Assembly (NCBI GenBank): GCA_964528615.1
Contig: CAZGSU010000024.1
Location: 10,459-74,458 of the forward strand
Source: an uncultured Acidobacteriaceae bacterium
GTDB lineage: Bacteria; Acidobacteriota; Terriglobia; Terriglobales; Acidobacteriaceae
Direction: 5' to 3'
Length of the DNA: 64,000 nucleotides
The notes under the pieces are model-generated. The model made no database searches. It was not told where the DNA came from and saw nothing but the letters and a program-made list of their open reading frames with translations. The position numbers and the translations under genes are program-made. Numbering within the stretch: position 1 is the first letter of the stretch; each line of letters begins with the position of its first letter. Shown here piece after piece: positions 2-63,557 of the stretch.

Positions 2-1075
2 CCGGAGCTGAACGCCGAGTCGTCCGCGCGCCGTTTGCAGGGCCCACAGGCCGCGGTGGTTGCGCCTCCGCCCCGAATGGACGCCGCTTCACCGCGCCGG
101 TTGGGAGACATCAACATTGGTCACACCGAAGTGGTGGCGCCCGCACCGGAGTTGGCCGTAGCCGAGCAGCGCACACTGGGCGGCGGCGGCCAGACGGCAC
201 TCGGCTCTGCTGGACCTGCGGTCGTGCCGCCACCACCGTCGATTCAGGGCAATGCCGGTTCAGGCTCGGGTGGAAGGCTCATCTCGCTCGGAGTTCATCC
301 CGCGGCGATGCGCGAACCGCTGGAAACACCAAATGGAAATCGCCGCGGCACTTTTGCCGCCACTCCCGCCGGAAAAACGGGCGCAGCGGGCACTCCCGAC
401 GTTGCGACGAACGACTCGGGCAGCGGAAGTTCATCCGCCAGCAAGAACCGCAACGGGATTCCTTCGGGACTCATGGTCGGCGCCGCCCCCAATACTCAGA
501 ACAGTTCTACCGTCGCGGGCCAGGGACAGGGAAATGGAACTGGCGGCGGCACTGCGGCCGCTCAGAATTCGGACAACTCCCGATTGATTGCCGACGCTAC
601 CCCGCCACGGGTTAGTGCGACTCCGCCCGCTTCCGAGGTCTCCGAAGAAAAAGCCACCGATGTCGATCACTGGATCTTCGGTGACCGGAAGTTTTATGCC
701 ATGACGTTGAACATGCCGAACCTGAATTCGGCCGGCGGAAGCTGGGTGATTCGCTTCGCCGAACTCAACGGGAATGAAACCAAGGGTGAGCTGACAGCGC
801 CGGTGGCGACGCAGAAAGTTGATCCGGCCTATCCGCTGGAGATGATGCGCCGCAATGTACACGGGACAGTCACGCTCTACGCCGTGATTCGCAACGACGG
901 TTCGGTGACCGATGTGCGCGTTTTGCGGGGCGTGGACGACCAGCTCGACCAGTACGCCCGCGCCGCGCTGTCCCATTGGCGCTTTCGTCCGGCGACAAAG
1001 AACGGCGCTGCCGTGGATCTGGAAGCGGTGGTGATGATTCCGTTCAGGCCAGTACGGGGAAAGTCTAGTTTCTAG
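2..1075 (+). CDS. TonB-family protein with C-terminal TonB_C domain; 5' end runs off the window
   Basis: Frame is open from the window edge. A Pro/Gly/Ala-rich linker is followed by a TonB_C-like segment YPLEMMRRNVHGTVTLYAVIRNDGSVTDVRVLRG...ALSHWRFRPATKNG. The last codons lie inside a heptad repeat array. Confidence 0.8.
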   Translation, partial: PELNAESSARRLQGPQAAVVAPPPRMDAASPRRLGDINIGHTEVVAPAPELAVAEQRTLGGGGQTALGSAGPAVVPPPPSIQGNAGSGSGGRLISLGVHPAAMREPLETPNGNRRGTFAATPAGKTGAAGTPDVATNDSGSGSSSASKNRNGIPSGLMVGAAPNTQNSSTVAGQGQGNGTGGGTAAAQNSDNSRLIADATPPRVSATPPASEVSEEKATDVDHWIFGDRKFYAMTLNMPNLNSAGGSWVIRFAELNGNETKGELTAPVATQKVDPAYPLEMMRRNVHGTVTLYAVIRNDGSVTDVRVLRGVDDQLDQYARAALSHWRFRPATKNGAAVDLEAVVMIPFRPVRGKSSF

Positions 1076-1161
1076 ATTCCTAGATCCAGTTTCCGGTTTC
1101 TAGTTTCTAGTCCTCATACGATTCCGCCGGCACGACATCAACTGGAAACCTAGAAACTAGA
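1064..1161. repeat. heptad-repeat inverted-arm element, family A (unit TCTAGTT / GTTTCYR)
   Basis: Left arm 1064-1112 is TCTAGTT TCTAGAT TCCTAGA TCCAGTT TCCGGTT TCTAGTT TCTAGTC. Right arm 1140-1161 is AACTGGA AACCTAG AAACTAG A. tctagtttctag pairs with ctagaaactaga. Confidence 0.9.
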
Positions 1162-1175
1162 CGCTCGGGACTGCC

Positions 1176-3404
1176 TCACTTCCCTGCCCCCACCTTACCC
1201 TCCAGCATGGCGTAAATTGCCGGATTGGAGCATACCTCGTAGTAGTCTTGTCCGGTCCAGTGCTGCAGGGAAAATTTCTGAGGATCAATTTGCGGAATCT
1301 GGCCGGCGCGCACCAGGATTTTCTTGAAAATGTCATTGCCGACGGGAACCAGGCCGCTATGGAGTTGAAAAACTTCGCTACCCCAAAGTGCCGGCAAATC
1401 GAGTTGGCACGGTTCGATTGAGATTTCCTGCTGCAGCCGCTGGAAAGCTGCCCGGCTGATGCGAATTCCGTTGATATTGTATTTCAGGATGAAATCGTCC
1501 GGGCTGTCGACGCCGTCGCCGTCGTTCACGGTCTGAAAGGCATACACATTGAACGGGACCTTCACACCCTGGATGGCCTTGCGCACTCGCTTGCTGCAGG
1601 AGGACAGACGGTCACTCTCATTCAGGGCCTCGGAAATCATGATCTGATGTTCGCCGTCCATCAGGTACATGGGCGCGGAATCCTGAAACGAAATACCTGT
1701 TCCCAGTTCCAGAGTCGGCAGTCCTGCCCGCTCCAGAAGGTGGTTGTAGCCGCGCACGATCTCGATCATCTCCCGCGCCAGCACGCAAGCTCGAGCGACC
1801 GCAAGAGGAGGCTCGCCTTCGCGCTCCAGCATGGCGACGATGATGGCATCGCCTTCGACGAACACTTTGCTGGCGCCGTATTTGGCCAGCAATTTGTTGA
1901 CCGGATCGTAGAAATTCAGACTGAAGTAGGAAGCCGGATTCATTCCCTGCTCGAGCAAAGACCGGGTAAGCCGGGAAGAGTCGCGAATATCCGCCTTCAG
2001 AATCACGTGGCGCAGGACTTTGTCTTCAGACGGCTTCTGCTCTTCCGGGAGCAGGAATTCGTATAGCGTGCCGTTCATGGCGGAGAGGTCCCGCATCTTT
2101 TGATTGCCGATCAGATTGCCACCATCCAGGGCGGAATTCAGGGTTTCGAGTCGTCGCAAATCGCGGTGATAGCGCAGGAAATCACGCAGAAAACGCGCCG
2201 CCATCTTTGCCCGTTCCGTTCCGCGGCACGCCGCGACTCGGGCCATGGCAGAGTACAGGCTTTCGACCGACAGTTTGCCGTGCTCTTCGATCAGTTTCTC
2301 CACCCGGTCGCGCTCTTCCCGCGAGATCAGGCCATTCTTCAATTGCTGGGCATTGATGCGCGGCGAGTATTCGGATAGCAGCGGCACCACTTCGTAGGAC
2401 GCGATCACGTGGTCCATGAGCTTCTCGCGCTCGAGCAATTGCACCCAGGACTCCAGGCGCGCCCTCTGGCCGCGGCCCTCGCGCGTGCTCTCGTCGGGCT
2501 GGCCCGCACCTACCAGCTCATGGGCATTTTCCGGGACGTTCAGCCAGCCGTCGATTACGCTGTCGTCCTCCGCTTTCGGACCCAGATGCAGTGACAGCAG
2601 AAATTCGCGAGCCACCCGGCGCACATTGGAAAATCGGTCGGGGTCGCGATCGAAGTTGCCCAGCATGACATAGTGCTCTGCGTTCAGGTAGGTATCGCAG
2701 CCGTCTTCGGTGAAAACCAGCGGGTTGAGGAACAGCTTGTATTCCGCCTCGGCACGGTTGCCGAAAAGCGATCGCCGCATGCGGGCCAGTGTTTCTTTCT
2801 CAATCTCGCGCAGGATGCGGAACAATTCCTGCCCCGTCTTGCGCAGGATGATCTTTTTGGCGACCTGGAAACTGGCAACCCTCTCGCGATACTCCAACGC
2901 TTTCTGCTGGCGCACGCCTTCGTAACTCTTGAGCATCATGCGCCCGCGTTCCAGGAGTTGCGCGAACTGCGAGTTCAACTCGATGCGCAGAAATTTAATG
3001 ATCGCCGCCCTGCCCAGAACATCGACGGAAAGGTTTTCCGCCGCCTTGGCGCGATTCAGGGTCGAAACATGGAGGTCAGCGAGCAGAGGTTTGAGTTCCG
3101 ACGGGCTGGCCTTGGGCTGTTGAACCTTCAACGAGGCCATGGATCCGGCAAAATGATGGCCTGCCGTTCTCTCCTGCGTCTCGGCAGCCAGCAGTCCGTC
3201 CATGTTACCGTGGCGCACGATCAGGCTTGCGATCCGGGGCCGCGCCTGCTCGACAAATCGCGGGCTCAGATGAACATCGTGACGGAGGTTGTCCACACCC
3301 AATTGCAGATCTTCCAGAGTAAGCTTGGGCGTGTAACTGCTTAGGTGGGGTGGTTCGATCTCCTCGGGGGAGCGTCCGAGTTTGAAGATGGGGATGCGAG
3401 GCAT
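1176..3404 (-). CDS. large protein with C-terminal class III nucleotidyl-cyclase-like domain
   Basis: 742-aa ORF with ATG start. Motifs ILKADIRDSSRLT, VFVEGDAIIVAM, LGTGISFQDS and ALNESDRLSS match the positions of the two metal Asp and the Asn..Arg of adenylate/guanylate cyclases. The N-terminal ~440 aa is helical and not recognised. Confidence 0.6.
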   Translation of the reverse strand: MPRIPIFKLGRSPEEIEPPHLSSYTPKLTLEDLQLGVDNLRHDVHLSPRFVEQARPRIASLIVRHGNMDGLLAAETQERTAGHHFAGSMASLKVQQPKASPSELKPLLADLHVSTLNRAKAAENLSVDVLGRAAIIKFLRIELNSQFAQLLERGRMMLKSYEGVRQQKALEYRERVASFQVAKKIILRKTGQELFRILREIEKETLARMRRSLFGNRAEAEYKLFLNPLVFTEDGCDTYLNAEHYVMLGNFDRDPDRFSNVRRVAREFLLSLHLGPKAEDDSVIDGWLNVPENAHELVGAGQPDESTREGRGQRARLESWVQLLEREKLMDHVIASYEVVPLLSEYSPRINAQQLKNGLISREERDRVEKLIEEHGKLSVESLYSAMARVAACRGTERAKMAARFLRDFLRYHRDLRRLETLNSALDGGNLIGNQKMRDLSAMNGTLYEFLLPEEQKPSEDKVLRHVILKADIRDSSRLTRSLLEQGMNPASYFSLNFYDPVNKLLAKYGASKVFVEGDAIIVAMLEREGEPPLAVARACVLAREMIEIVRGYNHLLERAGLPTLELGTGISFQDSAPMYLMDGEHQIMISEALNESDRLSSCSKRVRKAIQGVKVPFNVYAFQTVNDGDGVDSPDDFILKYNINGIRISRAAFQRLQQEISIEPCQLDLPALWGSEVFQLHSGLVPVGNDIFKKILVRAGQIPQIDPQKFSLQHWTGQDYYEVCSNPAIYAMLEGKVGAGK

Positions 3405-3724
3405 GGTTGGCGGTCTTTTTTTTCCTTTACGGCCGCCGCACTGGGCGAACCATGCTGGCGCGAAATTGCATCACAGTTGGATTGTGCTTCATCGCGTGAA
3501 TCAGCGTGAGCAGGAATCAGCCCCCGCTTTCAACTCCCTCTCCTTGCAAGCTGCTGATATTCCTACCTATTCGCGAGCCTAGCATGCGTGCCGACCTCGG
3601 CCAACGTTACCCAAGTTTGCGGTCTGCCCGGAGACTGGGCAGCGGCGAACAATGCATTCCAGTTACTTCGGTCACCGTGCTGATGACCAAGCGTCAAGGT
3701 ATGATTTGTCGAACCGTGACCTCC

Positions 3725-6678: not shown

Positions 6679-6751
6679 AACTCCGTCTCCTTGGCTATGG
6701 ACTGCTGCGAAGCCGGTGCTGACGACTGAAGACCGAAGACTGGCGACTGGT

Positions 6752-9261: not shown

Positions 9262-9437
9262 TAGTCTTTAGTCGTCGGCCGTCAGTCGTTAGAAAAACAG
9301 TTGCCGGTCGTCAGTCGTCCGTCCTCAGTCGTCAGGAAAACAGCCTTCAGTCTTTGTTCTTTAAAAACCAGTTGTCGGTTTTCTGTTGTCAGTTGTCAGA
9401 AAGGCTGAAGACTGACGACCGAAGACTGCCGACTGCC
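9262..9437. repeat. heptad-repeat element, family B (unit CAGTCKT): four direct blocks plus one inverted block
   Basis: Direct blocks at 9262-9292, 9298-9335, 9341-9361 and 9369-9399, separated by A-rich linkers. Inverted block ctgaagactgacgaccgaagactgccgactgcc at 9405-9437. Confidence 0.9.
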
Positions 9438-15268: not shown

Positions 15269-15293
15269 TGTGGCGCGGGCGCCCCCGCCCGCG
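15269..15293 (+). repeat. GC-rich REP-like 25-mer hairpin, copy 1
   Basis: tgtggcgcgggcgcccccgcccgcg. Stem cgcgggc/gcccgcg with a 6-nt loop. Confidence 0.85.
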
Positions 15294-15296
15294 GCC

Positions 15297-15387
15297 TTTG
15301 ACTTTGACTTTCAGTCTTTGATTCTCAGACTCTGACTTCAGACTTTGACTTCAGACTTAATTCTCAGACTTTGACTCTCAGACCTCG
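15297..15387. repeat. direct heptad-like array, family E (TTGACTT / CAGACTT)
   Basis: About 13 degenerate units: tttgact ttgactt tcagtct ttgattc tcagact ctgactt cagactt ... No inverted arm. Confidence 0.85.
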
Positions 15388-15399
15388 ATTTCCATCCCT

Positions 15400-15425
15400 C
15401 CCGGGCGAGCGCGTCCGCGCCACAT
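15400..15425 (-). repeat. REP-like 25-mer, inverted diverged copy
   Basis: The reverse complement atgtggcgcggacgcgctcgcccggg matches 22 of 25 positions of the copy at 30916. Confidence 0.7.
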
Positions 15426-15432: not shown

Positions 15433-15987
15433 TCAGATTTCTTCGTCCGGTCCGGGACCGTCGATGGGGATGCCGCCGAAGTCTTCGGACAGCTCCAGCA
15501 AGCGCTGATAATGGTCGTACCAGTCGGTGGAGGCTTCGTAGATCATCATGATGCCCTGGTGGGCGAAGCCCAGCTGCACAAACCCGGTCTTGCCCACGTA
15601 AGTCCGCAGCCAGCGGGCCTCATCCACATCTTCGTCGTTGGTGAACTCGAGGTTACCCAAACGTTCGACCATCTGGTCGAGCTCTTCGCGGCGCAGCGTC
15701 CAGGCATCCATGGTGAGGAAAGGCGCGGCCGCGGCCTTGGCCAGTTCCACGAAATCCTTCCAGCTGTCGGGGTTGTCCTCTGTTTTCCAGATTACGCTCT
15801 GCACTTCTTCATAGTCGACGTAACCATGGAAGCGGCGCATGCCGTGGCCCTCGATGAAGGCAACCATGTCATCTTTGAGGCCTGCCAGATTGTCGGGTGC
15901 GGGAGACATCGGTTTATTTCTGCCATTGTATGCCTGTTTTTGAACAGCAGCTACTAGCTGCTGGTTACTAGCGTCTGGCTTTTTCAC
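15433..15987 (-). CDS. hypothetical acidic protein
   Basis: 184-aa ORF with good coding appearance. An alternative start is at 15909 (MSPAPDN). No family recognised. Confidence 0.55.
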   Translation of the reverse strand: MKKPDASNQQLVAAVQKQAYNGRNKPMSPAPDNLAGLKDDMVAFIEGHGMRRFHGYVDYEEVQSVIWKTEDNPDSWKDFVELAKAAAAPFLTMDAWTLRREELDQMVERLGNLEFTNDEDVDEARWLRTYVGKTGFVQLGFAHQGIMMIYEASTDWYDHYQRLLELSEDFGGIPIDGPGPDEEI

Positions 15988-16072
15988 CTGATCGAAAATT
16001 CGTGCCGAGACTCGGTACAGTCGAATGTTTGGGATGAATGATCCCTATGCCGGCGTGCCTATGCGGAGGGTT

Positions 16073-16103
16073 AGCTAGAAGCCAGCAGCTAGAAGCTAGG
16101 AGC
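16073..16103. repeat. solo A-rich arm, family C (AGCTAGA)
   Basis: agctaga agccagc agctaga agctagg agc. No partner arm nearby. Confidence 0.75.
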
Positions 16104-16165
16104 AAGCGGTCGTTCCGCCCGCTTGTGCTAGACTGTCTGTTTCACAAGCCACTTCGATCCGCACT

Positions 16166-19414: not shown

Positions 19415-19435
19415 TCGCAGATTGATGCATTTCGC

Positions 19436-19466
19436 GTTTCCAGTTTCCGGTTTCTGGTTTCTAGAG
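19436..19466. repeat. solo T-rich arm, family A
   Basis: gtttcca gtttccg gtttctg gtttcta gag. Confidence 0.8.
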
Positions 19467-25622: not shown

Positions 25623-26465
25623 ATGAGATCTATGCTGCGATACGCAGTGCTCGTGGCCGCGTTAGTTGCCGGCCCCTTGTCGCTCCAGAGCCTTGCCGAC
25701 GAAGGCCCACTCGACCCCACCCCGCCTAAAGGAACCACGACGGAGGAAATCATTCGGCGTTTCGCGGCCAAGGAAAAGGAATTCCAGCAGGCGCGCGACC
25801 AGTACACCTACCGCCAGGACGTCAAAGTGCAGACGCCGGAGGACGATGGCGAATATCACGAAGTCTTCGACGTGCTCTTTGACGATCAGGGCAAACGTTT
25901 GGAAAACGTGGTGTATGCACCGCAGTCCTCGCTCTCCCGTATTTCGATGTCCCCAGAGGACATCGATGATATCCGGCACCGGCTGCCCTTCGTGCTGACC
26001 AGCGACGAGATCCCCGAGTATCAGATTGTTTATGTCGGGCAGCAGCAGGAAGACGAGCTGCACTGCTATGTTTTCGACATTGCTCCCAAGGAAATCGTCG
26101 GCAAGAAACGATATTTCCAGGGCCGCCTCTGGGTCGATGACCGCGATTTTCAGATCGTGAAGACGTATGGCAAGACCGTCCCTGACATTCGCAAGAAGAG
26201 GGGACAGGAAAATCTCTTTCCCAAGTTCACCACCTGGCGTGAACAGATCGACGGCAAATACTGGTTCCCTACCTATACCAAAGCCGACGATGAGCTGCAT
26301 TTTTCTACGGGCGACATACGCATCCGCGAGATCGTGAAGTACAGCGATTACAAGCGCTTCGGATCAAACGTGAAGATCACGTATGAAGGCCAGGAAGTGC
26401 AGAAGGCACCAGGAGCGGAGAAAGACAAGTCTCAGGCCCAGACGCCGGACAAGCCGCAGAAATAG
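25623..26465 (+). CDS. LolA-like / outer-membrane lipoprotein-sorting-like secreted protein
   Basis: ATG 25623 gives the signal MRSMLRYAVLVAALVAGPLSLQSLA. Later HCYVFDIAPKE...FQGRLWVDDRDFQIVK matches the pattern of that fold. Confidence 0.6.
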   Translation: MRSMLRYAVLVAALVAGPLSLQSLADEGPLDPTPPKGTTTEEIIRRFAAKEKEFQQARDQYTYRQDVKVQTPEDDGEYHEVFDVLFDDQGKRLENVVYAPQSSLSRISMSPEDIDDIRHRLPFVLTSDEIPEYQIVYVGQQQEDELHCYVFDIAPKEIVGKKRYFQGRLWVDDRDFQIVKTYGKTVPDIRKKRGQENLFPKFTTWREQIDGKYWFPTYTKADDELHFSTGDIRIREIVKYSDYKRFGSNVKITYEGQEVQKAPGAEKDKSQAQTPDKPQK

Positions 26466-26587
26466 TTCCTGGTTTCCGGTTTCTAGTTTCCAGCAATTGC
26501 AGCTGGAACGAACCGCAGAAATCGTTTTAGTTCCGTATGAAGCCTGTGTCGGGTTCTAGAAACTGGAAACTAGAAACCTGAAACTAG
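26466..26587. repeat. heptad-repeat inverted-arm element, family A, long loop
   Basis: Left arm ttcctggtttccggtttctagtttccag (26466-26493). Right arm ttctagaaactggaaactagaaacctgaaactag (26554-26587). A 16-nt perfect core ggtttctagtttccag is shared. Confidence 0.9.
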
Positions 26588-27192
26588 TAAAAAAGATACT
26601 TCCGCCACTTATCATCTGAGCGGCCCATCAGGCGCATGATGTGCCGGCTGGTGTGCAGGTTGAAGGCGCGGGGCTCGCGCATCAGTTTCATATCCGCTTC
26701 GGTAGGAAACTGGTTACCCTTTTGGCGGTTGCAAGGATGGCAGCAAGCCACCAGGTTTTCCCAGGTGGAAGCTCCGCCTCGCGAACGCGGCACCACGTGG
26801 TCAAGCGTCAGTTCGCCGGATGGCAGTACTTCACCGCAGTATTGGCAGGTATTCCGGTCACGCAGGAGGATATTCTTGCGTGAGAGCGCGCGGGTCTGGT
26901 GCGGGATGCGCCGGTATTCGAGCAAGCGAATCACTGACGGCACACGAATGGCCAGGCGGGCGGCGTGAAGGAAGTGTCCATTCTCTTCTTCCGTCATCGC
27001 GACCCCCTTGAGTACCAGGACGATGGCTCGTCGCGCAGCGCATACATTGATCGGCTCGTAGGATGCGTTCAGCACCAGCACGGGTGTGTGCAGGGCGTGA
27101 CCGTTGCCGTCGCGGTGAACTCCAAAAACGGCCGGCGCGGGTGCATGGCCCCGCAGCGAGCCGCTCATCGAATTGTTCCACTTCCCCGACAT
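26584..27192 (-). CDS. HNH endonuclease
   Basis: CQYCGE...[33 protein letters not shown]. Confidence 0.85.
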
Positions 27193-31416: not shown

Positions 31417-31551
31417 CGCGCTTCCGAGGAAATTGACGATTAGCACGCTTTGAACCGCCTGCGCGTTCCCCTTCGTTGCTGGAGGAGGTCAGAATCGCGA
31501 ATTTAACTGGTGGTCGTCTGTCCGAGGTCCGAAGTCCGAAGCCTGTTCTCA

Positions 31552-36596: not shown

Positions 36597-36604
36597 GCAT
36601 CGGA

Positions 36605-36666
36605 CCTCGGGCGTCAGGCGTCCGCCCTCTGATTTTCGCGGACCGGCCGAAGTCTGACGCCCGAGG
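36605..36666. terminator. 13-bp perfect inverted repeat with nested hairpin between convergent genes
   Basis: cctcgggcgtcag ... ctgacgcccgagg. The interior holds gtccgc...gcggac. Confidence 0.45.
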
Positions 36667-36680
36667 CCCGCCGTCCGTTC

Positions 36681-37667: not shown

Positions 37668-37750
37668 GGCGGGCTGCGAACAGCGAGTGTAGTGCTTCAT
37701 CCGGCAGGAGGCAAACGGGGGGATAAGAAGTGGTAACAGCGAGACGGCAG

Positions 37751-37992
37751 TTGGCATTTAGCAATTGGCATCTGGCTTTTCGGAACGCGGCGGGCAAGCT
37801 TGTTTCCCAGACGGGCGAGGACCAGGGTGCGGGATGAGAGAGCAAACCGCAGCGGCTAAAGCCACAACGTACGGCGCAGGTTCCGGCACGACTAACGTCG
37901 TGCCCTTCCCCCAAACGAATCGCCATAGCCAATGCGAAATTCCAAATGCCAAGTGCTAAGTGCCAAGTGCCAAATGCCACATGCTAAGTGCC
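37751..37992. repeat. heptad-repeat inverted-arm element, family G (TTGGCAT / AGTGCCA) with ~145-nt interior
   Basis: Left arm ttggcat ttagcaa ttggcat ctggctt (37751-37780). Right arm aatgcca agtgcta agtgcca agtgcca aatgcca catgcta agtgcc (37927-37992), which overlaps the GT39 stop. Confidence 0.85.
37885..37904. other. perfect 8-bp hairpin inside the family G element
   Basis: ggcacgac taac gtcgtgcc. Confidence 0.7.
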
Positions 37993-39694: not shown

Positions 39695-40654
39695 CTATTG
39701 CAGGGAGGAGCCAAGGCGCAATTCCGCCAGAATCCGTTCAGTCGCGACCGACAAGGGTCCATCAAGCGCGCACCCGCTGGCGCATTGATGTCCGCCGCCG
39801 CCAAAATGCTCAGCCACCGCTGCTACGTCCACTTTCCCTTTGCTGCGCAAACTTACGCGAAACCGTCCATCAGGAAGTTGGCGGAAGAATAATGCCACCT
39901 CAACACCTTGCATGGAAAGCGCGTAGTTCACCAGGCCCTCGCAATCTTCTTCCTTCGCGTCGCAGCCTAGCATCTGCTCCTGGGACACCGAGATCCAGGC
40001 CAGGGGTCCTTCCCGGTGAAGGTTGGAAAGGGCCGCTCCCAACAGGCGCATCTTGGCTGTGGAGTGCCCAAAATAAATGTTGCGTGCGCAATGTGCCGGG
40101 TCCGCGCCGGCCAGCACCAGTTCACGCGCCAGCGCGAAGGTATGTTCGTTCGTCCCTTCAAACATGAAGGCACCGGTGTCGGTGAGAACCGCGGTGTACA
40201 GGCAGGTGGCGATCTCGGGGGAAATCTTCAGCCCGGCCTCTCGCCCCAGGCGGTAGACCATTTCCGCCGTGGCCACAGCGTGAGGATCAATCCAGTTGAC
40301 GTGTGCGAAAGGCTTGCCGCTGACATGGTGATCAATGCTGATCAGGAAGCGGTCTTCAAGTCCTTGAAGGCGGGTGCGCTGGATACTGTCGCATTCCAAT
40401 ATGATCGCGGCGTCGTAGTCGCCATTCACGCGTTCCGCCTGAACCACGGTTTCAGCAAAAGGCAGGGGCTGATAAATCCGGGGCACACCATCGTGGAGAA
40501 CGACATCCGCTTCTTTACCCATCAAGCGCAGGATCTGACGACAAGCCAGGGCCGAACCGATCGCGTCCCCGTCCGGTCGCGCGTGCGAGGTCAGCAGGAA
40601 GCGGTTGCGCTGTTCGATATGTTTGAGAACCTCGGTCAACATATCAGTCGTCAC
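39695..40654 (-). CDS. nrnA: DHH/DHHA1 phosphoesterase, NrnA-like oligoribonuclease/pAp phosphatase
   Basis: HARPDGDAIGS, ISIDHH and FGGGGHQCASG. The GTG start lies inside a heptad array; ATG at 40642 is an alternative. Confidence 0.88.
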   Translation of the reverse strand: MTTDMLTEVLKHIEQRNRFLLTSHARPDGDAIGSALACRQILRLMGKEADVVLHDGVPRIYQPLPFAETVVQAERVNGDYDAAIILECDSIQRTRLQGLEDRFLISIDHHVSGKPFAHVNWIDPHAVATAEMVYRLGREAGLKISPEIATCLYTAVLTDTGAFMFEGTNEHTFALARELVLAGADPAHCARNIYFGHSTAKMRLLGAALSNLHREGPLAWISVSQEQMLGCDAKEEDCEGLVNYALSMQGVEVALFFRQLPDGRFRVSLRSKGKVDVAAVAEHFGGGGHQCASGCALDGPLSVATERILAELRLGSSLQ

Positions 40655-40794
40655 TTCAGTCGTCAGTCTTCAGTCTTCAGTCTTCAGTCGTCAGTCGTTC
40701 GCCAGGTGCATATGGACCATCAGTTGTCAGTCATCGGTTGCCAGTTCTCAGTTTCCGGCCTTGCTTGACGACTGAAGACTGACGACTAAAGACT
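40645..40794. repeat. heptad-repeat element, family B: two direct blocks plus one inverted block
   Basis: 40645-40700 cagtcgtcacttcagtcgtcagtcttcagtcttcagtcttcagtcgtcagtcgttc. 40721-40758 cagttgtcagtcatcggttgccagttctcagtttccgg. Inverted block 40767-40794 gacgactgaagactgacgactaaagact. Confidence 0.9.
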
Positions 40795-41155
40795 ATCTCT
40801 TCTTTTTCCTTGTCCGGCCTAGTAACTCGTCGATTCTGGCACCGTACTTGTCGGAGCGGTCCAAGTGGAAATAGAGTTCGGGCGGACGACGGAGGTGCAA
40901 GTTTTCCGCCACCTCGCGACGGATATATCCGACCGCCGCCGTGAGGCCCTCCAGCGATCGCGCAGCTTCTTCGTCATCCCCATCAAGCGACACGAAGACT
41001 TGCGCCGAGCGCGAATCCTCCGCTAGCACCACACTGGTGACGCTGACCAGGCCGATGCGTGGGTCGCCCAGCTCGCCTTCCACGATCGTTTCAATCTCTT
41101 CCCGCAAGGCCTCTCCCAGGCGCTCCCGATGATATTTCGCGCCACGCTTCTCCAC
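40793..41155 (-). CDS. rbfA: ribosome-binding factor A
   Basis: RLGEALREEIETIVEGELGDPRIGLVSVTSVVLAEDSRSAQVFVSL. GTG 41155 has AAGAGG 5 nt upstream. The ORF is open to 41224. Confidence 0.88.
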   Translation of the reverse strand: MEKRGAKYHRERLGEALREEIETIVEGELGDPRIGLVSVTSVVLAEDSRSAQVFVSLDGDDEEAARSLEGLTAAVGYIRREVAENLHLRRPPELYFHLDRSDKYGARIDELLGRTRKKKR

Positions 41156-41569: not shown

Positions 41570-41660
41570 GTCGTTGATCCTTGGTCGTTGGCCTTTGGCA
41601 ATAGCCAAATAAGAACTTCGGCATGTGCAGGTTTCGAGCCAACGGCCAACGACGAACGAC
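41570..41660. repeat. heptad-repeat inverted-arm element, family D (GYCKTTG)
   Basis: Left arm gtcgttgatccttggtcgttggcctttggc, right arm gccaacggccaacgacgaacgac. Lies in the infB-DUF503 spacer. Confidence 0.85.
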
Positions 41661-41665
41661 TGCTC

Positions 41666-46255: not shown

Positions 46256-46352
46256 GCAATTGAGTGATTTTGAAATCGGGTAATTTTGTAATTTGAAACC
46301 CACCCGAGAAACCAGGGTTTGAAAATTACAAAATTACTCAATTTCCCAATGC
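46256..46352. repeat. heptad-repeat inverted-arm element, family F (AT-rich, GTAATTK)
   Basis: gggtaattttgtaatttgaaaccc (left) against gggtttgaaaattacaaaattactc (right), with loop acccgagaaacca. Lies in the nusA-rimP spacer. Confidence 0.9.
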
Positions 46353-50624: not shown

Positions 50625-51182
50625 TTGAACTCAACTCCCTCAACCCCAGCTCACTCGCATTTGGGCGGCTTGAAACCCAGCCGCCTGAACCGAAGTCAAG
50701 ACGAACTGCTTAAGACCTGGATCGCGGCCACTCTCTGGCTCGGCCTTATTGTTGCCGAGTCCACCAATTTCTTTTCGGCTGAGAACACCGGCCGGTTCCT
50801 TTATTCGATACTTCATTTTCTGCTGGGAGTTGTACCGGCTCACTTTCCCATCTGGCACTTCTACCTTCGTAAGACCGGCCACTTCGTTGGCTACTTCATG
50901 CTGAGCCTGCTGCTGTTCCGCGCCTGGCGAGCTACCTTTCCGTTTCCCGGTGCGGGCTGGAACATTCAATGGGCGAGAATCTCTTTCTTCATGACCGCGC
51001 TGGTCGCCTGCCTCGACGAGTGGCATCAAACCTATCTTCCGAAACGTACCGGGAGTCTGCACGACGTATTACTCGACAGTACGGCGGCCCTGGTGGCCCA
51101 AGTGGTCCTGTATCTGATTCTGCGGTGGCGCTCCACAGGTCTAACAGGCGATGAAGCGCTGAAGAAGACGACTGAAGACTGA
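50625..51182 (+). CDS. VanZ family protein
   Basis: Four TM helices with LDEWHQTYLPKRTGSLHDVLLDS. The TTG start is uncertain. Confidence 0.7.
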   Translation: MNSTPSTPAHSHLGGLKPSRLNRSQDELLKTWIAATLWLGLIVAESTNFFSAENTGRFLYSILHFLLGVVPAHFPIWHFYLRKTGHFVGYFMLSLLLFRAWRATFPFPGAGWNIQWARISFFMTALVACLDEWHQTYLPKRTGSLHDVLLDSTAALVAQVVLYLILRWRSTGLTGDEALKKTTED

Positions 51183-51190
51183 CGACTGCT

Positions 51191-51682: not shown

Positions 51683-51766
51683 GGCTCTACATCAGTCTAA
51701 CGTGAGGTGCGCCGAGCGCAAGATTACGGCGGATAGACGCCGCGGGACATGTACGGTTGGGTGGGG

Positions 51767-51796
51767 CAGCTGTCAGCTCTCAGCCTTCAGCTAGAC
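51767..51796. repeat. short direct heptad array (CTSTCAG type)
   Basis: cagctgt cagctct cagcctt cagctag ac. Confidence 0.7.
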
Positions 51797-52397: not shown

Positions 52398-52506
52398 CCA
52401 GTTCAGTTCTGTATCTTGGTTTCCAGCTTCTGGTTTCCAGTTTCAAAATTCCTGGTCGCAGAAGAAACACGCAGCCTCAGGGATTTTGGAAACTGGAAAC
52501 GAAACC
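52398..52506. repeat. heptad-repeat inverted-arm element, family A (rpoA-rplQ spacer)
   Basis: Left core ggtttccagcttctggtttccagtttc (52418-52444). Right arm ttttggaaactggaaacgaaacc (52484-52506). Confidence 0.85.
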
Positions 52507-54486: not shown

Positions 54487-54551
54487 CAGTTTCTAGTTGC
54501 TGGTTTCCAGTTTCCAGTCTGAGAACTGCGAACCAGAAACCGGAAACTGCC
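54487..54551. repeat. heptad-repeat hairpin, family A (rpsK-rpsD spacer, first)
   Basis: cagtttctagttgctggtttccagtttccagtctgag / cgaaccagaaaccggaaactgcc. Confidence 0.85.
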
Positions 54552-54633: not shown

Positions 54634-55080
54634 TTACACCCTTCTCCTCTTCGGCGGACGGCAACCGTTGTGCGGGATCGGGGTAGCGTCTTTGATGTTG
54701 CGGACTTCGATACCGGCCGCAGCCAGCGCGCGGATTGCCGATTCGCGTCCAGAACCCGGACCGCTTACTCGGACCTCAACGCTGCGCACCCCGTGATCGC
54801 GCGCCATATTGGCCGCGTTCTGAGCCGCCTGCTGAGCAGCAAAGGGCGTCCCTTTACGCGATCCGCGAAAACCGAGCGACCCGGAACTCTTCCAGGCCAG
54901 AACATTTCCCGCCTGATCGGCGATCGTGACAATGGTGTTGTTGAACGAGGCCTGGATGTGGGCGATGCCGTGCGGAACGTGCTTCCGCTCCTTCTTCTTG
55001 AAGGTTTTCTTCTTGCCCTTTTTGTCCGGCGCCGCTGCTCCGGTCGCTCCCGCTGCCGCTGGTGCTGCTGTTTTTGCCAT
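54634..55080 (-). CDS. rpsK: 30S ribosomal protein S11
   Basis: [16 protein letters not shown]...[11 protein letters not shown]. Ala/Lys-rich N-terminal extension. Confidence 0.97.
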
Positions 55081-55083
55081 ATT

Positions 55084-55129
55084 AGCTTCTAGCTCCTAGC
55101 TTTTGGCTTCTAGCCAGGAGCTAGAAGCT
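55084..55129. repeat. heptad-repeat hairpin, family C (GCTNCTR) (rpsM-rpsK spacer)
   Basis: agcttctagctcct (55084-55097) pairs perfectly over 14 bp with aggagctagaagct (55116-55129). Confidence 0.92.
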
Positions 55130-55142
55130 AAACGCTGATTTG

Positions 55143-55655: not shown

Positions 55656-55660
55656 AGACC

Positions 55661-55685
55661 CAGCCTTCAGCCTTCAGCCGTCAGC
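55661..55685. repeat. short direct heptad array (CAGCCKT) (infA-rpmJ spacer)
   Basis: cagcctt cagcctt cagccgt cagc. Confidence 0.75.
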
Positions 55686-55713
55686 AAACCCGCGACGACG
55701 GAGGAGGCGGCAT

Positions 55714-55932: not shown

Positions 55933-55946
55933 CGACTCCTTAGAAT

Positions 55947-56036
55947 CAGCTGCTAGCTTCTGGCTACTAGCTTCTCGCTAAATCCCACAACTTTCGGTTC
56001 GGGCTAGCAGCTAGAAGCCAGTAGCTAGAAGCTGCC
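55947..56036. repeat. heptad-repeat inverted-arm element, family C (map-infA spacer)
   Basis: Left arm cagctgctagcttctggctactagcttctcgc. Right arm ggctagcagctagaagccagtagctagaagctgcc. Confidence 0.9.
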
Positions 56037-56789: not shown

Positions 56790-56812
56790 GTGCCGTTTCT
56801 TGACTTCGTGGT

Positions 56813-59469: not shown

Positions 59470-59477
59470 AGCAATAA

Positions 59478-59540
59478 GCTCTCAGCACAGCTATCAGCTC
59501 CCAGTCTTGCTGAGGACTGATGACTAACGACTTAGGACTG
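59478..59540. repeat. heptad-like inverted arms (CTCAGCW type) (rpmD-rplO spacer)
   Basis: gctctcagcacagctatcagctcccagtc / gctgaggactgatgactaacgac. Confidence 0.7.
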
Positions 59541-59750: not shown

Positions 59751-59752
59751 GA

Positions 59753-60265: not shown

Positions 60266-60270
60266 GCCTC

Positions 60271-60372
60271 ATTTTGTAATTTCGTAATCGGGTAATTTAG
60301 TAATTGAAAAACTCATCATGTGATTCGGTCTTAAGTTACACAACTACCCAATTACACAATTTCTCAATTCCC
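60271..60372. repeat. heptad-repeat inverted-arm element, family F (rplR-rpsE spacer)
   Basis: Left arm attttgtaatttcgtaatcgggtaatttagtaattg. Right arm gttacacaactacccaattacacaatttctcaattccc. Confidence 0.85.
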
Positions 60373-60737: not shown

Positions 60738-60748
60738 TTTTTCCAGTC

Positions 60749-60877
60749 CTTGGCCGTTGGTCGTTGGTCGTTGGCAAAAGCCCAACCATCACGACTCTCA
60801 AATATGGCTGATGGGTATCACCCATCCCTTGCCGTTCGGGGTTGGCCAACGACCAAGGACCAACGACCAACGACGAC
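60749..60877. repeat. heptad-repeat inverted-arm element, family D (rplF-rplR spacer)
   Basis: Left arm ccttggccgttggtcgttggtcgttggc. Right arm ggccaacgaccaaggaccaacgaccaacgacgac. The interior holds the 7-bp hairpin gatgggt atc acccatc. Confidence 0.9.
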
Positions 60878-61416
60878 TACTTCGCTCCCGTCTTCCCAAC
60901 CTTCTTCTTCAAGCGCTCGCCCACATAGCGCACGCCCTTGTTCTTATACGGATCGGGCGGCCGCAGGCTGCGCATTTCGGCTGCGACCTGACCCACCTTC
61001 TGGCGGTCGATGCCGGTGACGCTCAGCTTGGTCTGCTTGGGATCGACCGTCGCTTCAATCCCAACCGGCAGCGGGTACTCAATGGGATGAGAATATCCCA
61101 GGCTGAATACCACGGTGCCCTTTCCCTTCAACTCGGCGCGATATCCGATGCCGACAATTTCCAGTTCGCGGGTCCAGCCCTTGGTGACACCCTCAACCGC
61201 GTTGTTGACCAGGGCGCGGGCCAGCCCGTGCACCGCCGCCTGCGAATCGTTCTCGCGGATGGCCACCAGGTTGCCGTCCTGCTGCTCCACCCGGATGCCG
61301 CGGGGCAGTTGGGTATCCAGCTTGCCCTTGGGCCCCTGCACGGCGACCACGTTGCCCTCAATCTTGACCGCTACCCCCTTGGGGAGCGGGATCGGCTTTC
61401 TTCCAATTCTTGACAT
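60877..61416 (-). CDS. rplF: 50S ribosomal protein L6
   Basis: [22 protein letters not shown]. Confidence 0.97.
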
Positions 61417-61417
61417 A

Positions 61418-61534
61418 GGCTTCTAGCTTCTAGCTCCTGGCTTCTAGCCAAGTCGCGTTTCTGCGATTACCGCAAGATGTTCCAACTCGCCGCGCTCCGT
61501 AGCTAGTAGCCAGTAGCTAGTAGCTAGAAGCGGC
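61418..61534. repeat. heptad-repeat inverted-arm element, family C (rpsH-rplF spacer)
   Basis: Left arm ggcttctagcttctagctcctggcttctagcc. Right arm gtagctagtagccagtagctagtagctagaagcggc. Confidence 0.9.
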
Positions 61535-61536
61535 TC

Positions 61537-61935
61537 CTACCAAATCTCGCACAGTACTTCGCCGCCAACGCCCTGCTTGCGGGCCTGGCGTCCGGTCATC
61601 ACTCCGCGCGGGGTGGTCAGGATATTGATGCCCAGACCGCCCAGCACGCGCGGGATTTCGCTGCGCCGCACATAGACCCGGCAACCCGGCCGGGAGACGC
61701 GCTCCACGTTCGAGATCGCGGCTTCGTTATTGTTGCCATACTTCAGATAGATCCGCAGGACCTTGTGGCCTTCCTCTTCCGCGGGCTTGAAATTGGAGAT
61801 GTAGCCTTCCTCTTTGAGGATGCGGGCAATCTCCAGCTTCAGCTTGGAAGCGGGAACGTCTACCTTTTGATGGCGGGCGCGGATCGCATTCCGAATGCGC
61901 GCCAGCATGTCTGCGACCGGATCGGTCAACCTCAT
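61537..61935 (-). CDS. rpsH: 30S ribosomal protein S8
   Basis: LTDPVADMLARIRNAIRARH. Confidence 0.97.
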   Translation of the reverse strand: MRLTDPVADMLARIRNAIRARHQKVDVPASKLKLEIARILKEEGYISNFKPAEEEGHKVLRIYLKYGNNNEAAISNVERVSRPGCRVYVRRSEIPRVLGGLGINILTTPRGVMTGRQARKQGVGGEVLCEIW

Positions 61936-62010
61936 CGTTTGCTTCTCCTCCGCCGCCCGTTTGCTTCGGTCATCACTGCCCTGCCCCGAAGAACCCGCGA
62001 CGACGTGCTG

Positions 62011-62035
62011 TGTGGCGCGGGCGCCCTTGCCCGCG
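62011..62035 (+). repeat. GC-rich REP-like 25-mer hairpin, copy 3 (rpsN-rpsH spacer)
   Basis: tgtggcgcgggcgcccttgcccgcg. It differs from the other copies only at the two loop positions. Confidence 0.85.
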
Positions 62036-62046
62036 TCCCTTCTTTC

Positions 62047-62268
62047 CTACCACGACGACTTCGAAACTCCGGGAATTTCTCCCCGCAAAGCCAGCCCCCG
62101 GAAACACAGGCGGCAGATGCCGAATTTGCGCAGATACGCCCGCGGGCGCCCGCACAGTTTGCAGCGGTTGTGTCGGCGCGAGGAAAATTTCAGCTTCGGC
62201 CCTTTGCCGCGCGCCTTGTCATACTTTGCTTCGATCTTTGCGTCCTTCACCCGTTTTGCAGTAGTCAA
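62047..62268 (-). CDS. rpsN: 30S ribosomal protein S14 (zinc-binding form)
   Basis: [40 protein letters not shown]. 73 aa with a short N-terminal extension. Confidence 0.95.
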
Positions 62269-62278
62269 TTTACCTTTC

Positions 62279-62330
62279 GCTCCTAGCTTCTGGTTGCCAG
62301 ATCTCAGCCTGCAGCCGCCAGCTCTCAGTC
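62279..62330. repeat. heptad fragments (family C piece plus CTCAGCC-type piece) (rplE-rpsN spacer)
   Basis: gctcctagcttctggttgcc followed by cagatctcagcctgcagccgccagctctcagtc. Confidence 0.6.
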
Positions 62331-63008: not shown

Positions 63009-63086
63009 CAGCTGCTAGCTACTGGCTTCTAGCTTCTAACTTCAAACCGCGGTTTTTTGTGCTCTGGCTAGCAGCTAGCAGCTATT
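63009..63086. repeat. heptad-repeat inverted-arm element, family C (rplX-rplE spacer)
   Basis: Left arm cagctgctagctactggcttctagcttctaac. Right arm ctggctagcagctagcagctatt. Confidence 0.88.
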
Positions 63087-63089
63087 TTG

Positions 63090-63434
63090 CTACTTATCCA
63101 GCGTGGCGCCGCACTTGCGGCACACTCGCACTTTGCGCTCGCCCTGGTACTCGTGCCCGATCCGCACCGGGCGCTTGCAACTGGTACACATCAGGGCCAC
63201 GTTGGAGATGGCAATCCGGCTCTCCTGTTCCGCGATCCCGCCTTTTACGTTCCGCTGCGGATTGGGCCGGACATGCTTCTTGACCAGCATCACGTGCTCG
63301 ACCAGGATCTTGGCGTCGTTGGGAAAAACTCGCAGCACGCGGCCTTCTTTTCCCTTGTCGCGGCCAGTAATCACTTTCACCGTATCGTTGCGGCGAAGGT
63401 CGACTCGTTTGTGTTCTGTCGCTACTGTCTTCAT
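63090..63434 (-). CDS. rplX: 50S ribosomal protein L24 (C-terminal Cys4 zinc-ribbon variant)
   Basis: DTVKVITGRDKGKEGRVLRV KOW motif. C-terminus CTSCKRPVRIGHEYQGERKVRVCRKCG. Confidence 0.96.
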   Translation of the reverse strand: MKTVATEHKRVDLRRNDTVKVITGRDKGKEGRVLRVFPNDAKILVEHVMLVKKHVRPNPQRNVKGGIAEQESRIAISNVALMCTSCKRPVRIGHEYQGERKVRVCRKCGATLDK

Positions 63435-63448
63435 AAGAACCCTTAACC

Positions 63449-63557
63449 AAATTTAGTAATTGAGTAATTTTGTAATTTTGCCATTGAAAATTCATTTCCC
63501 CACTGATTCTGGGTTCAATTACCAAATTGCTCAATTACGCAATTGCTCAATTACTCC
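63449..63557. repeat. heptad-repeat inverted-arm element, family F (rplN-rplX spacer)
   Basis: Left arm aaatttagtaattgagtaattttgtaattttgcc. Right arm caattaccaaattgctcaattacgcaattgctcaattactcc. Confidence 0.88.

Follow-up and report, generated by a model that had tools for sequence, protein, structure and literature searches.

Heptanucleotide repeats were described in cyanobacteria in 1990 and, to our knowledge, still have no established function or mechanism. The cyanobacterial STRR sequences (Mazel 1990) are said to be tandem heptanucleotides at many intergenic sites, with several unit types co-resident; the units of STRR1 (CCCCAGT) and STRR3 (CAACAGT) both contain a CAGT core. Here we describe arrays of degenerate heptamers, mostly paired as inverted T-rich and A-rich arms, in the intergenic regions of a 64,000-nt stretch of contig CAZGSU010000024.1 from an uncultured Acidobacteriaceae bacterium (the window; all window counts refer to this whole stretch). 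Compared to these, the STRRs reportedly are mostly single and longer arrays from another host phylum with another GC content, and inverted arms or juxtaposition to stop and start codons are not described for them. Heptamers are also the most frequent class of long simple-sequence repeat (SSR) in many prokaryotes, and polymerase slippage has been put forward to explain them (Mrazek 2007, summarised in PMC4679880). The first-pass annotation of the window could place its arrays in no named repeat class; precedents in Xanthomonas (PMC4692102), Beggiatoaceae (PMC4679880) and Geobacter (PMC2700814) show that the class is already described, yet unexplained. New are the phylum and the density, how many co-resident unit types share one core and the exact bracketing of stops and starts, as well as the colonisation of nearly every junction in the spc and alpha ribosomal-protein operons and the allele turnover among near-identical strains. 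We tentatively read the arrays as the Terriglobia form of intergenic heptanucleotide SSRs, arranged as foldback pairs that are active, or simply tolerated, in the mRNA, where they may form a junction-spanning coupling stem; we assign this reading a probability of about 0.42.

In Xanthomonas, about 185 GGGAATC arrays per genome include 70–75 convergent inverted pairs (Rehm et al. 2015, PMC4692102). Like the window arrays, these are degenerate intergenic heptamer arrays, mostly of about four units, which form opposite-strand pairs of fixed convergent orientation capable of making a stem-loop; they are enriched where two open reading frames (ORFs) are co-oriented and depleted where these diverge, sense-strand arrays being no more than 50 bp from a stop codon and antisense-strand ones no more than 50 bp from the next ORF, and they are retained at orthologous sites between species with varying lengths (PMC4692102). 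They differ in having one G-rich unit, read as quadruplex-forming, while here at least seven unit types without G-runs are observed, and in the purine/pyrimidine polarity with respect to genes, which is the reverse of that found here (PMC4692102). Moreover, the window arrays lack the four G-tracts of the Xanthomonas GGGNATC arrays, are far denser, holding about half of intergenic regions, and enter ribosomal-protein operons; the strain-to-strain allele replacement seen here is not described in Xanthomonas (PMC4692102). Runs of three or more G are absent from the five common unit types profiled, and the GC-rich array at 36600 has one GGG; because of this absence of G-runs, quadruplex formation was ruled out.

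The TAACTGA repeats of marine Beggiatoaceae, cyanobacteria and Bacteroidetes resemble the window arrays in that forward arrays abut starts, usually ending 1 nt upstream, apparently substitute for the Shine-Dalgarno sequence, and are found inside ribosomal-protein operons (MacGregor 2015, PMC4679880). The reverse complement, TCAGTTA, fits the Y-R-G-T register of our arrays (PMC4679880), and near-TAACTGA units are present in relatives of the window, e.g., GAACTGAGAACTGATT directly before the ATG of rpmC and TGATAACTGACAAC in the lptB–rpoN junction of locus L001, as are GAACTGA and GATAACT units. The main window units differ from TAACTGA while sharing the ACTG/CAGT core. TAACTGA is a single unit type, nearly always single-armed (one inverted case among 170; PMC4679880), whereas most loci here are two-armed and many unit types occur. 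In Geobacter metallireducens, finally, 3–5 tandem units of 7, 8 or 9 nt are mostly arranged in opposite-strand pairs at a variable distance, with several classes (1–3) in one genome, as here; unlike here, they number tens of copies per genome, class 1 is associated with insertion sequences, none of which is seen in our case, and the repeats are annotated as "global regulator binding sites", gene sense not having been analysed (PMC2700814).

The window was compared to about 170 related loci (L001–L176); 80 metagenomic spc-operon loci located via ribosomal protein S8, for which the sense strand is known, served as an independent sample. Its LptB is identical to a protein encoded on soil metagenome contigs, and the nearest species-level genomes are uncultured Terriglobia/Terriglobales metagenome-assembled genomes (MAGs) near Candidatus Sulfotelmatobacter. 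Periodicity was scanned in 21-nt windows with at least 80% self-match per lag, using Markov-1 (first-order Markov chain) shuffles as controls; arrays were also counted at 11 of 14 matches. Lag 7 yields 113 such windows, compared to 0–10 for each other lag from 2 to 13, 37 for the double period of 14 and 8 for lag 15, while shuffles yield 0–1 at any lag. In agreement with the enrichment that the first-pass annotation had led one to expect, 44 lag-7 arrays with 11/14 matches are observed in the window versus 1.2 in the shuffles, and Tandem Repeats Finder reports approximately 35 period-7 arrays. The array scan of the window shows no enrichment at lags 4, 5, 10 and 11, and a modest excess at lags 6, 9 and 12, which probably reflects codon periodicity. 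A general super-period of 14 nt, hinted at by Tandem Repeats Finder, was rejected, as the lag-14 match is lower than the lag-7 match in 32 of 37 arrays.

An array consists of 3–12 degenerate units, typically 3–5 (on average 4.1–4.8 across the five commonest types), and the initially proposed 7-nt unit applies to most arrays, family F having an 8-nt unit (four loci). Strong arrays are present in 25 of the 51 window intergenic regions of at least 25 nt, matching the earlier count of about 25 loci, and three more regions hold a weak array; confirmed coding sequence of the window is essentially array-free. By type of intergenic region, arrays were found in one of five divergent, three of five convergent and 21 of 41 tandem regions, and divergent regions have fewer arrays per kb, the difference being about 4-fold in close relatives and about 2.6-fold when all loci are taken. 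Almost all cistron junctions of the spc, alpha and nusA–infB operons are filled by elements: arrays are borne by rplN–rplX–rplE, rpsH–rplF–rplR–rpsE, rpmD–rplO, map–infA–rpmJ and rpsM–rpsK–rpsD–rpoA–rplQ, and further by rimP–nusA, infB–DUF503 and rbfA–DHH. In the 80 metagenomic loci, 32–54% of six spc junctions bear arrays. Junction alleles measure 10–31 nt when array-free and 80–160 nt when occupied.

The placement of the arrays follows the gene boundaries. In all fetched loci, arrays near starts are A-rich in the gene sense in 96 cases and T-rich in 23, while those near stops are T-rich in 92 cases and A-rich in 51. T-rich arrays start at a median of 3 nt past the stop in the 80 metagenomic loci, and the end of the A-rich complement coincides with the next start or lies close to it, or else falls at the stop of a convergent neighbour; the two jointly take up most or all of the intergenic spacer. 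In predicted stems of the window, the first paired base lies 0–11 nt past the stop and its partner 2–19 nt before the next start (+6/2 for rpsH–rplF, +1/4 for infB–DUF503, +4/4 for infA–rpmJ, +3/5 for rplF–rplR). Short junctions of relatives hold an A-rich array alone, abutting the ATG, as in the case of rpmC mentioned above. A Shine-Dalgarno-like 4-mer is found in 22% of cases where the array ends at most 8 nt from the start, compared to 57–66% otherwise; start-abutting arrays without a Shine-Dalgarno sequence are found, for example, in front of the window genes rpoN, rplF, rpsK and rpmJ and, among relatives, of rplP and rpmC. The final A-rich unit of several elements is itself a Shine-Dalgarno-like variant, with CAACGAC changed to CAAGGAC or CTGACGAC to CTGAGGAC.

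The arms of the elements are 72–93% complementary, and all 17 two-armed elements tested fold far better than dinucleotide shuffles on both strands (z from –2.4 to –8.0); the complementarity and folding that the first reading of the sequence had proposed are thus borne out. In the related loci, an arm score of at least 12 is reached by 72% of arms from the same intergenic region and by 15% of arms from different junctions. Loops were first given as 5–145 nt; they are indeed variable, and the actual range is about 2 to about 160 nt. A layout identical everywhere had also been claimed, and it holds for most two-armed elements, though not for the six single arrays (Table 1) or for the hybrid element at rpmD–rplO, built of two unit types. 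The array quoted as the first example (1064–1112) reads exactly as given there, and has its partner arm at 1141–1163.

The T-rich arm comes first in all of about 20 two-armed window copies, as noticed initially. The polarity is not strict, since about 10% of two-armed copies in relatives are A-first (T-first to A-first 45:6); in the 80 independent spc loci the ratio is 41:2, and by context it is 88:9 in tandem, 5:0 in convergent and 8:0 in divergent regions, the latter coming mostly from one orthologous site. Nor is a polarity intrinsic to the element supported: it follows the gene sense, with T-rich arrays after stops and A-rich arrays before starts. The arm polarity is therefore a genuine bias of about 9:1 that coincides with the gene-sense rule. 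Some of the A-first exceptions (L042, L043) are followed by a T-run and resemble ordinary terminators.

A different hairpin is found in the lptB–rpoN junction of L014 and L016. Its units measure approximately 10 nt (AAGGACACG…/…CGTGTCCTT), its first arm is the A-rich one and its loop is TTTT; hence, repeat-built hairpins at this site are not restricted to heptamers or to one polarity.

This anatomy suggests a possible role in translational coupling. In E. coli atpHA and in MS2 coat–replicase, a terminating ribosome opens a stem that sequesters the downstream ribosome-binding region. Similarly, T-rich and A-rich arrays might zip in the transcript into an imperfect stem of 20–35 bp, with several possible registers, which would loop out the spacer and bring the upstream stop beside the downstream start. 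A ribosome terminating at this stop would cover the first T-rich units and open the base of the stem, and this would free the A-rich leader, often bearing or replacing the Shine-Dalgarno sequence, so that downstream translation would stay coupled to the upstream cistron across a gap of 60–210 nt. At operon ends and in convergent junctions, the same stem would be a 3' protective hairpin and not a terminator. The arrays themselves change in place: copy numbers slip, one of the arms is lost, and now and then an arm or the whole allele is replaced. As in the atpHA and MS2 cases, the downstream ribosome-binding region would be paired with the end of the upstream cistron; those are individual idiosyncratic structures, while the model proposed here would involve one modular repeat-built stem at dozens of junctions.

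Several observations weigh against coupling by such stems. Within a family, complementarity is no higher between the arms of the same element than between arms of different elements. Single-armed loci exist, and the hybrid element at rpmD–rplO has poorly matched arms. In a test of strand-specific G–U pairing, a possible mark of selection on the RNA, 10 of 12 tandem elements have the better raw minimum free energy on the sense strand, but z-scores against composition-matched shuffles show no sense advantage. Covariation analysis with RNAalifold of two orthologous junctions with little divergence yields 2–3 compensatory pairs, a weak signal. The enrichment of stop triplets and the depletion of start codons in the units, described below, are present on both strands. 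One element lies between divergent genes and is apparently upstream of both, a position in which there is nothing for coupling to explain. Rapid allele turnover among near-identical strains fits weak constraint as well as function. Finally, while the position of arrays relative to genes is observed directly, in vivo folding and every functional step of the coupling model are what we infer from it.

The allele turnover bears on another explanation, that of functionless slippage DNA, where heptamer and octamer arrays would originate and grow in non-coding DNA by replication slippage, with template switching as the source of inverted copies. Purifying selection would then leave only harmless layouts, that is, A-rich and start-free arrays before starts, T-rich ones after stops, and self-folding pairs so that coupling survives, and the architecture would be a filter rather than a device. 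This explanation is the main and a serious competitor of coupling, if the less likely of the two. Arrays of the same kind, with family-matched arms, were found upon comparison with the related loci, where positions of orthologous arrays are retained while variable positions and copy numbers shift. The array at 15300 has 12, 6, 5, 2 and 2 units in near-identical strains. Across lineages, the lptB–rpoN junction is occupied by CAGTCKT, GTCGTTG, CAGTGGY, GTTCTCA, AGCTMTT or octamer GGTTTCAA units, and in each case the T-rich arm follows lptB. The DUF507 region of genomes whose LptB is at least 98% identical holds C-, D- or G-type elements between conserved flanks, the loops differing as well. Strains with identical S8 have three alleles of rplX–rplE (C, F or TTAGC types), three of rpsH–rplF, and two of rplF–rplR (B or D types) plus a derivative in L095, in which one arm and the loop are deleted and the A-rich arm alone is retained. 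Junctions nevertheless tend to hold one core across long divergence while drifting in place: at rpsH–rplF, 32 of 72 loci have the AGCT core, and the four other cores tested are absent. The array density is patchy across Terriglobales, even among close relatives, and fades in the most distant relatives, some lineages having compact array-free junctions. All this, as well as the lack of excess complementarity within elements and the slippage proposed for prokaryotic heptamers in general, is consistent with slippage.

On the other hand, substitutions are concentrated at one or two positions per unit, one G is invariant in 91–99% of units, and the same site is A/G polymorphic in all families, which makes a poor fit to a freely decaying, neutral microsatellite. 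The arrays are degenerate (72–90% match), without homogenisation; the same few unit types are met at many unlinked loci and in different species; the arms are family-matched far above chance; the Shine-Dalgarno sequences of essential genes are replaced by arrays; and non-coding DNA shows no enrichment for periods of 5, 6, 9, 10 and 11 nt. Taken together, positional retention, copy-number change, allele swaps, persistent cores and non-homologous loops (no homology was observed between loops of non-orthologous copies) point mainly to evolution in place, by slippage, arm loss and unit turnover with occasional replacement, and not to a classic transposable element.

The unit types had been described as orthogonal families. 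There are indeed several, but the five commonest align in a single register, Y-R-G-(T/C)-N-N-Y, in which G is the invariant position, and the R position is A in 65–76% of units in four families, where about 25% have G, and G in 65% in family D. Together with the preceding base the core reads TCAG, CTAG or TTAG, and each of these makes a stop codon, whether on one strand or on both. The tetramer CAGT is present in 31% of arrays and in 12% of the distinct units, compared to 2.4% expected. Stop triplets are present in 91% of A-rich arrays versus 56% in column-permuted controls, and ATG or GTG in 10% versus 35%. Since C (27%) is about as frequent as G (28%) in T-rich arms, a reading of these arms as Rho rut sites was not supported.

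The unit sequences suggest yet another explanation, in which the hairpins are titrated by a protein: each T-rich 7-nt unit would bind one OB-fold domain of a cold-shock protein (Csp) or of ribosomal protein S1, and the T-rich arm, transcribed first on either strand, would be coated before its complement is made; plenty of protein would keep the structure open (antitermination or translation on), and a shortage would let it close. Csp are said to be antiterminators acting in the nusA–infB operon of E. coli (Bae et al. 2000). Moreover, the 7-nt period corresponds to the heptanucleotide site of Bacillus subtilis CspB, which prefers 5'-GTCTTTG/T-3' and favours T at positions 2, 4 and 6 and C at position 3 (PMC1904285). 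Read from the invariant G, the units are GTCGTTG in family D (six of seven matches), GTCTTCA or GTCGTCA in family B, and GTTTCYR in family A; the T-first order on both strands and the variation of units around a shared core are accounted for as well. Among proposed binders of TAACTGA, S1 and Csp have been named before, as has CsrA (PMC4679880). We nevertheless find this model improbable. The match is partial and refers to the in vitro preference of one Bacillus protein, from which binding by a Terriglobia protein could be suggested by analogy; families C, F and G fit poorly, and single A-rich arrays abutting starts are left unexplained. In Xanthomonas the post-stop arm is rich in purines and in G (PMC4692102), so the model is not a general one.

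Position-specific conservation within units would also be expected if each 7- or 8-bp unit of double-stranded DNA held a small dimeric protein, e.g., of the ribbon-helix-helix type, the arms being head-to-head protein filaments for nucleoid organisation or regulation. Ribbon-helix-helix operators have such periods, the omega repressor binding 7-bp heptads and MetJ 8-bp boxes. In addition, the arms match by unit identity and not by fine-scale pairing, the single divergent-region element lies between conserved flanks, each with a –10-like hexamer (by reading), and the paired repeats of G. metallireducens are annotated as putative global-regulator sites (PMC2700814). While the period agrees with omega-type operators, which lie in promoter regions, the location does not, as our arrays are depleted in divergent regions. 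Array boundaries follow stops and starts within a few nt, orientation follows the gene sense, Shine-Dalgarno sequences are replaced, the arms are spaced by 2–160 bp, and extrapolation gives hundreds to thousands of sites per genome, all of which makes DNA binding highly unlikely as the common role of the arrays.

The first-pass annotation named REPINs as the closest analogy. The resemblance is real with regard to the distribution (3' of genes and intercistronic) and the hairpin shape: REP, BIME and REPIN elements likewise are abundant extragenic hairpin repeats after genes and between cistrons, rare in divergent regions, with several families per genome and proposed mRNA-stabilising roles. Eukaryotic foldback elements have inverted arms of short tandem repeats. 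One might thus suppose mobile REPINs or MITEs of the foldback kind, whose arms are terminal inverted repeats of units bound by a transposase acting in trans, e.g., RAYT, the more so as wholly different alleles, including loops, occupy the same site in near-identical strains, the same unit types occur at unlinked loci and the phylogenetic distribution is patchy. The analogy fails in the details. A REP unit is an imperfect palindrome of 20–40 nt with a conserved tetranucleotide head (GTAG or CGTC), while the arms here are direct tandem arrays without a head; REPINs are near-identical copies spread by RAYT, while loops here are unrelated between non-orthologous copies. No target-site duplications are visible at the allele boundaries of the DUF507, rplX–rplE and rplF–rplR sites, and the sole "empty" case, L095, is a deletion retaining one arm. 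One arm can be replaced alone, as in the hybrid at rpmD–rplO, junction-specific cores persist over long divergence, and neither RAYT nor any other transposase or reverse transcriptase was found among window ORFs scanned against Pfam. Mobility is, therefore, very improbable. A search of the window with the covariance models of Rfam 15 gave no hits at gathering thresholds, and only spurious sub-threshold hits at E ≤ 0.1.

Long stable stems directly after stops might also suggest transcription terminators, hairpin-dependent or bidirectional, and a consensus terminator scan of the first 20 kb showed no excess of canonical terminators (18 found, 19 expected), which leaves room for them. We give next to no credence to this possibility. 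The elements separate essential genes that are co-transcribed in the spc, alpha and nusA–infB operons, where efficient terminators are impossible; with the T-rich arm first there is no U-tract after the A-rich arm, and no T-run follows the element stems; the rare A-first copies (L042, L043) are the ones with a following T-run. Moreover, the end of the alpha operon already has a canonical terminator, TAAAAGGGACGGGCTTCTCGCCTGTCCCTTTTT, at 51800–51832 on the minus strand (A-tract, GC stem, T-tract), 20 nt past the rplQ stop, and the organism thus uses ordinary canonical terminators at operon ends.

Elements of the window are listed in Table 1.

Table 1. Array elements of the window. Positions are given on the forward strand; percentages refer to complementarity of arms, and z to the fold test of two-armed elements against dinucleotide shuffles.
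Position	Strand or context	Unit type and architecture	Junction and features
1064..1163	convergent	Two-armed, GTTTCYR (family A); T-rich 1064-1112, A-rich 1141-1163, 28 nt downstream of T-rich arm	TonB_C-like gene (+) ends 1075, 742-aa gene (-) ends 1176; first unit overlaps stop codon; orthologues retain family A with copy number 3-7; z -4.7/-4.5
6718..6750	-	Single array, CAGTCKT (family B), T-rich on - strand	Begins 2 nt past hpf stop (6752); downstream gene has its own AAGGAG Shine-Dalgarno
9263..9437	-	Composite, family B arms; in mRNA order, T-rich arm (complement of 9401-9437), inner array 9375-9400 (+ strand units GTTGTCA), A-rich arms (complement of 9263-9335)	Fills lptB-to-rpoN junction; T-rich arm follows lptB stop, A-rich arms stop 5 nt short of rpoN ATG; rpoN without Shine-Dalgarno
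15269..15424	-	About 12 GACTTYR units (family E) at 15300-15383 within GC-rich inverted repeat 15269-15291/15402-15424	158-aa gene-to-recJ junction
15949..16107		Two-armed, AGCTNCT (family C)	Sole divergent-region element, between two conserved flanks; flanked by 158-aa gene (-) and DUF507 gene (+)
19427..19465	+	Single T-rich array, family A	Begins 13 nt past queG stop (19414)
26463..26590		Two-armed, family A	Exactly fills convergent junction; both stops (26463-26465 +, 26584-26586 -) fall within outermost units; 89%; z -7.5/-8.0
31518..31545	+	Single array, AGGTCCG/AAGTCCG	Stops 6 nt before yggS-like start (31552)
36600..36670		Two-armed, GC-rich heptads TCGGRCS	Convergent; 85%; z -5.9/-5.4
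37746..37986	-	Two-armed, RGCAYTT (family G); loop about 160 nt with GGCACG...CGTGCC hairpin	PMT-to-GNAT junction; array overlaps PMT stop
40653..40795	-	Two-armed, family B	Exactly fills rbfA-to-DHH/DHHA1 junction; rbfA stop 40793-40795, downstream gene begins 40654; 93% over 29 nt
41571..41661	-	Two-armed, GYCKTTG (family D)	Fills infB-to-DUF503 junction
46267..46350	-	Two-armed octamer, GTAATTKN (family F)	rimP-to-nusA junction; 80% over 35 nt
51159..51190		Single array, family B	Convergent junction; overlaps VanZ-like gene end
51764..51791	-	Single array, A-rich in mRNA sense, GCTGARR	Past terminator after rplQ, upstream of next gene
52417..52506	-	Two-armed, family A-like; mRNA sense GGTTTCGTTTCCAGTTTCC ... 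GAAACTGGAAACCAGAAGCTGGAAACC	rpoA-to-rplQ junction; weak by lag score
53682..53791	-	Two-armed, family D	rpsD-to-rpoA junction; T-rich arm begins at rpsD stop
54487..54549	-	Two-armed, family A, almost loopless	rpsK-to-rpsD junction
55080..55136	-	Two-armed, family C, 2-nt loop	Fills rpsM-to-rpsK junction; A-rich arm stops 1 nt before rpsK ATG
55658..55687	-	Single array, A-rich in mRNA sense, GCTGAAG	infA-to-rpmJ junction; stops 2 nt before rpmJ ATG
55948..56033	-	Two-armed, family C	map-to-infA junction
59474..59531	-	Hybrid; T-rich B-type GTCGTTA GTCATCA GTCCTCA, then A-rich GCTGATA, GCTGAGA	rpmD-to-rplO junction; relatives have matched CAGCTMT arms
60271..60371	-	Two-armed octamer, family F	Fills rplR-to-rpsE junction
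60746..60878	-	Two-armed, family D	Fills rplF-to-rplR junction; final A-rich unit mutated to Shine-Dalgarno-like CAAGGAC; 83% over 41 nt; z -7.8/-6.6
61417..61536	-	Two-armed, family C	Whole rpsH-to-rplF junction; 82% over 39 nt
63010..63087	-	Two-armed, family C	rplX-to-rplE junction
63448..63559	-	Two-armed octamer, family F	rplN-to-rplX junction

The minus-strand gene ending in the outermost unit of the 26463–26590 element (26584–27192, 202 aa) encodes an HNH endonuclease, and this position is probably a coincidence. Two further dispersed motifs were observed. The short GC-rich hairpin GGCACGGCTTYAGCCGTGCC is present at 7393–7412 and 37885–37904 (two window matches compared to 0.05 expected) and recurs in L025, L039 and L041, in lptB–rpoN or neighbouring regions; its intergenic contexts are unrelated, and it may represent a separate small REP-like repeat family. 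The GC-rich motif GGCGCCCGCGCCACAC is found at 15268–15283, 30915–30930 and 62010–62025 (three versus 0.22 expected); it builds the inverted repeat around the GACTTYR array at 15269–15424, and one copy is located in the rpsN–rpsH junction.

Some junctions of relatives contain conserved sequences other than arrays. In the lptB–rpoN junction of L042–L054 (locus ~10780–10900), forming one sub-clade, a conserved stretch of approximately 100 nt (…GGTTACCAAGGCGTGGGCACATTGACCTTTCGTGTCC…GCATGAGAAGCTAAATTTTCC…) upstream of rpoN is flanked by GTTCTCA/TGAGAAC arrays and could be a small RNA or a leader. The same junction in L027, L034 and L039 has a small ORF of about 75 codons beginning with ATGACAATTGACGAACGG…; as in L027 it is located between GTCGTTG and CAACGAC arms, arms can bracket a gene. 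In L163–L176, more distant Acidobacteriota, a conserved GGCTGCAGTGGAAC-(variable hairpin)-GGGACTCGCAAGCC followed by AAGGA precedes rplF at the rpsH–rplF junction and is a candidate ribosomal-protein leader. In many relatives among L115–L146, CTCACGAACCGGTAACCACTCCGAAACCGTGAGAGGAAG is found in the rplX–rplE junction directly upstream of rplE and is possibly the spc operon's translational operator for S8; the window rplX–rplE junction is without it.

The gene map of the window was curated using Pfam and a codon log-likelihood caller. The spc and alpha operons occupy 54–64 kb on the minus strand, with rplN, rplX, rplE, rpsN, rpsH, rplF, rplR, rpsE, rpmD, rplO, secY, adk, map, infA, rpmJ, rpsM, rpsK, rpsD, rpoA and rplQ; rimP–nusA–infB–DUF503–rbfA lie at 40.8–46.8 kb, and lptB–rpoN–hpf within the first 20 kb. 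No tRNA or tmRNA genes were found within the window. The cumulative GC skew climbs until approximately 36 kb and steadily declines afterwards; this turn at about 36–40 kb may correspond to the switch to minus-strand gene orientation or to a replication landmark. Plus-strand ORFs of up to 259 codons run antisense to the ribosomal-protein operon (54607–57616 and 59520–62286) and have no Pfam hits. Longest-ORF calling with a filter on GC content at third codon positions (GC3) lets such ORFs beat the true short genes, so that 54.6–57.6 and 59.5–62.3 kb are assigned to the wrong strand. The arrays thus constitute an annotation hazard: they generate long spurious antisense ORFs, which can mislead gene callers in Terriglobia MAGs, and 5 kb of the spc operon are affected here.

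Beyond this lineage, heptad arrays might be a general modular post-transcriptional device whose 7-nt unit is the footprint of an abundant OB-fold RNA-binding domain of a Csp or of S1; we regard this as a long shot. If it were true, the T-rich arm, first to be transcribed, would be coated or stay free depending on the protein level, which would open and close stop–start stems and so set coupling and mRNA stability at hundreds of junctions, ribosomal-protein operons included, and the shared TCAG/CTAG/CAGT core would mechanistically unite the 35-year-old STRRs, the TAACTGA repeats of Beggiatoaceae, and the prokaryote-wide excess of heptamer SSRs. Further study is merited in any case, as the anatomy now gives sharp, testable predictions: juxtaposition of stop and start, A-rich heptad leaders that initiate without a Shine-Dalgarno sequence, and a need for upstream translation or for Csp/S1. 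For these, the lineage provides an unusually dense and diverse natural experiment, with many unit types built on one core, orientation by gene sense, junctions of essential operons, and allele variation.

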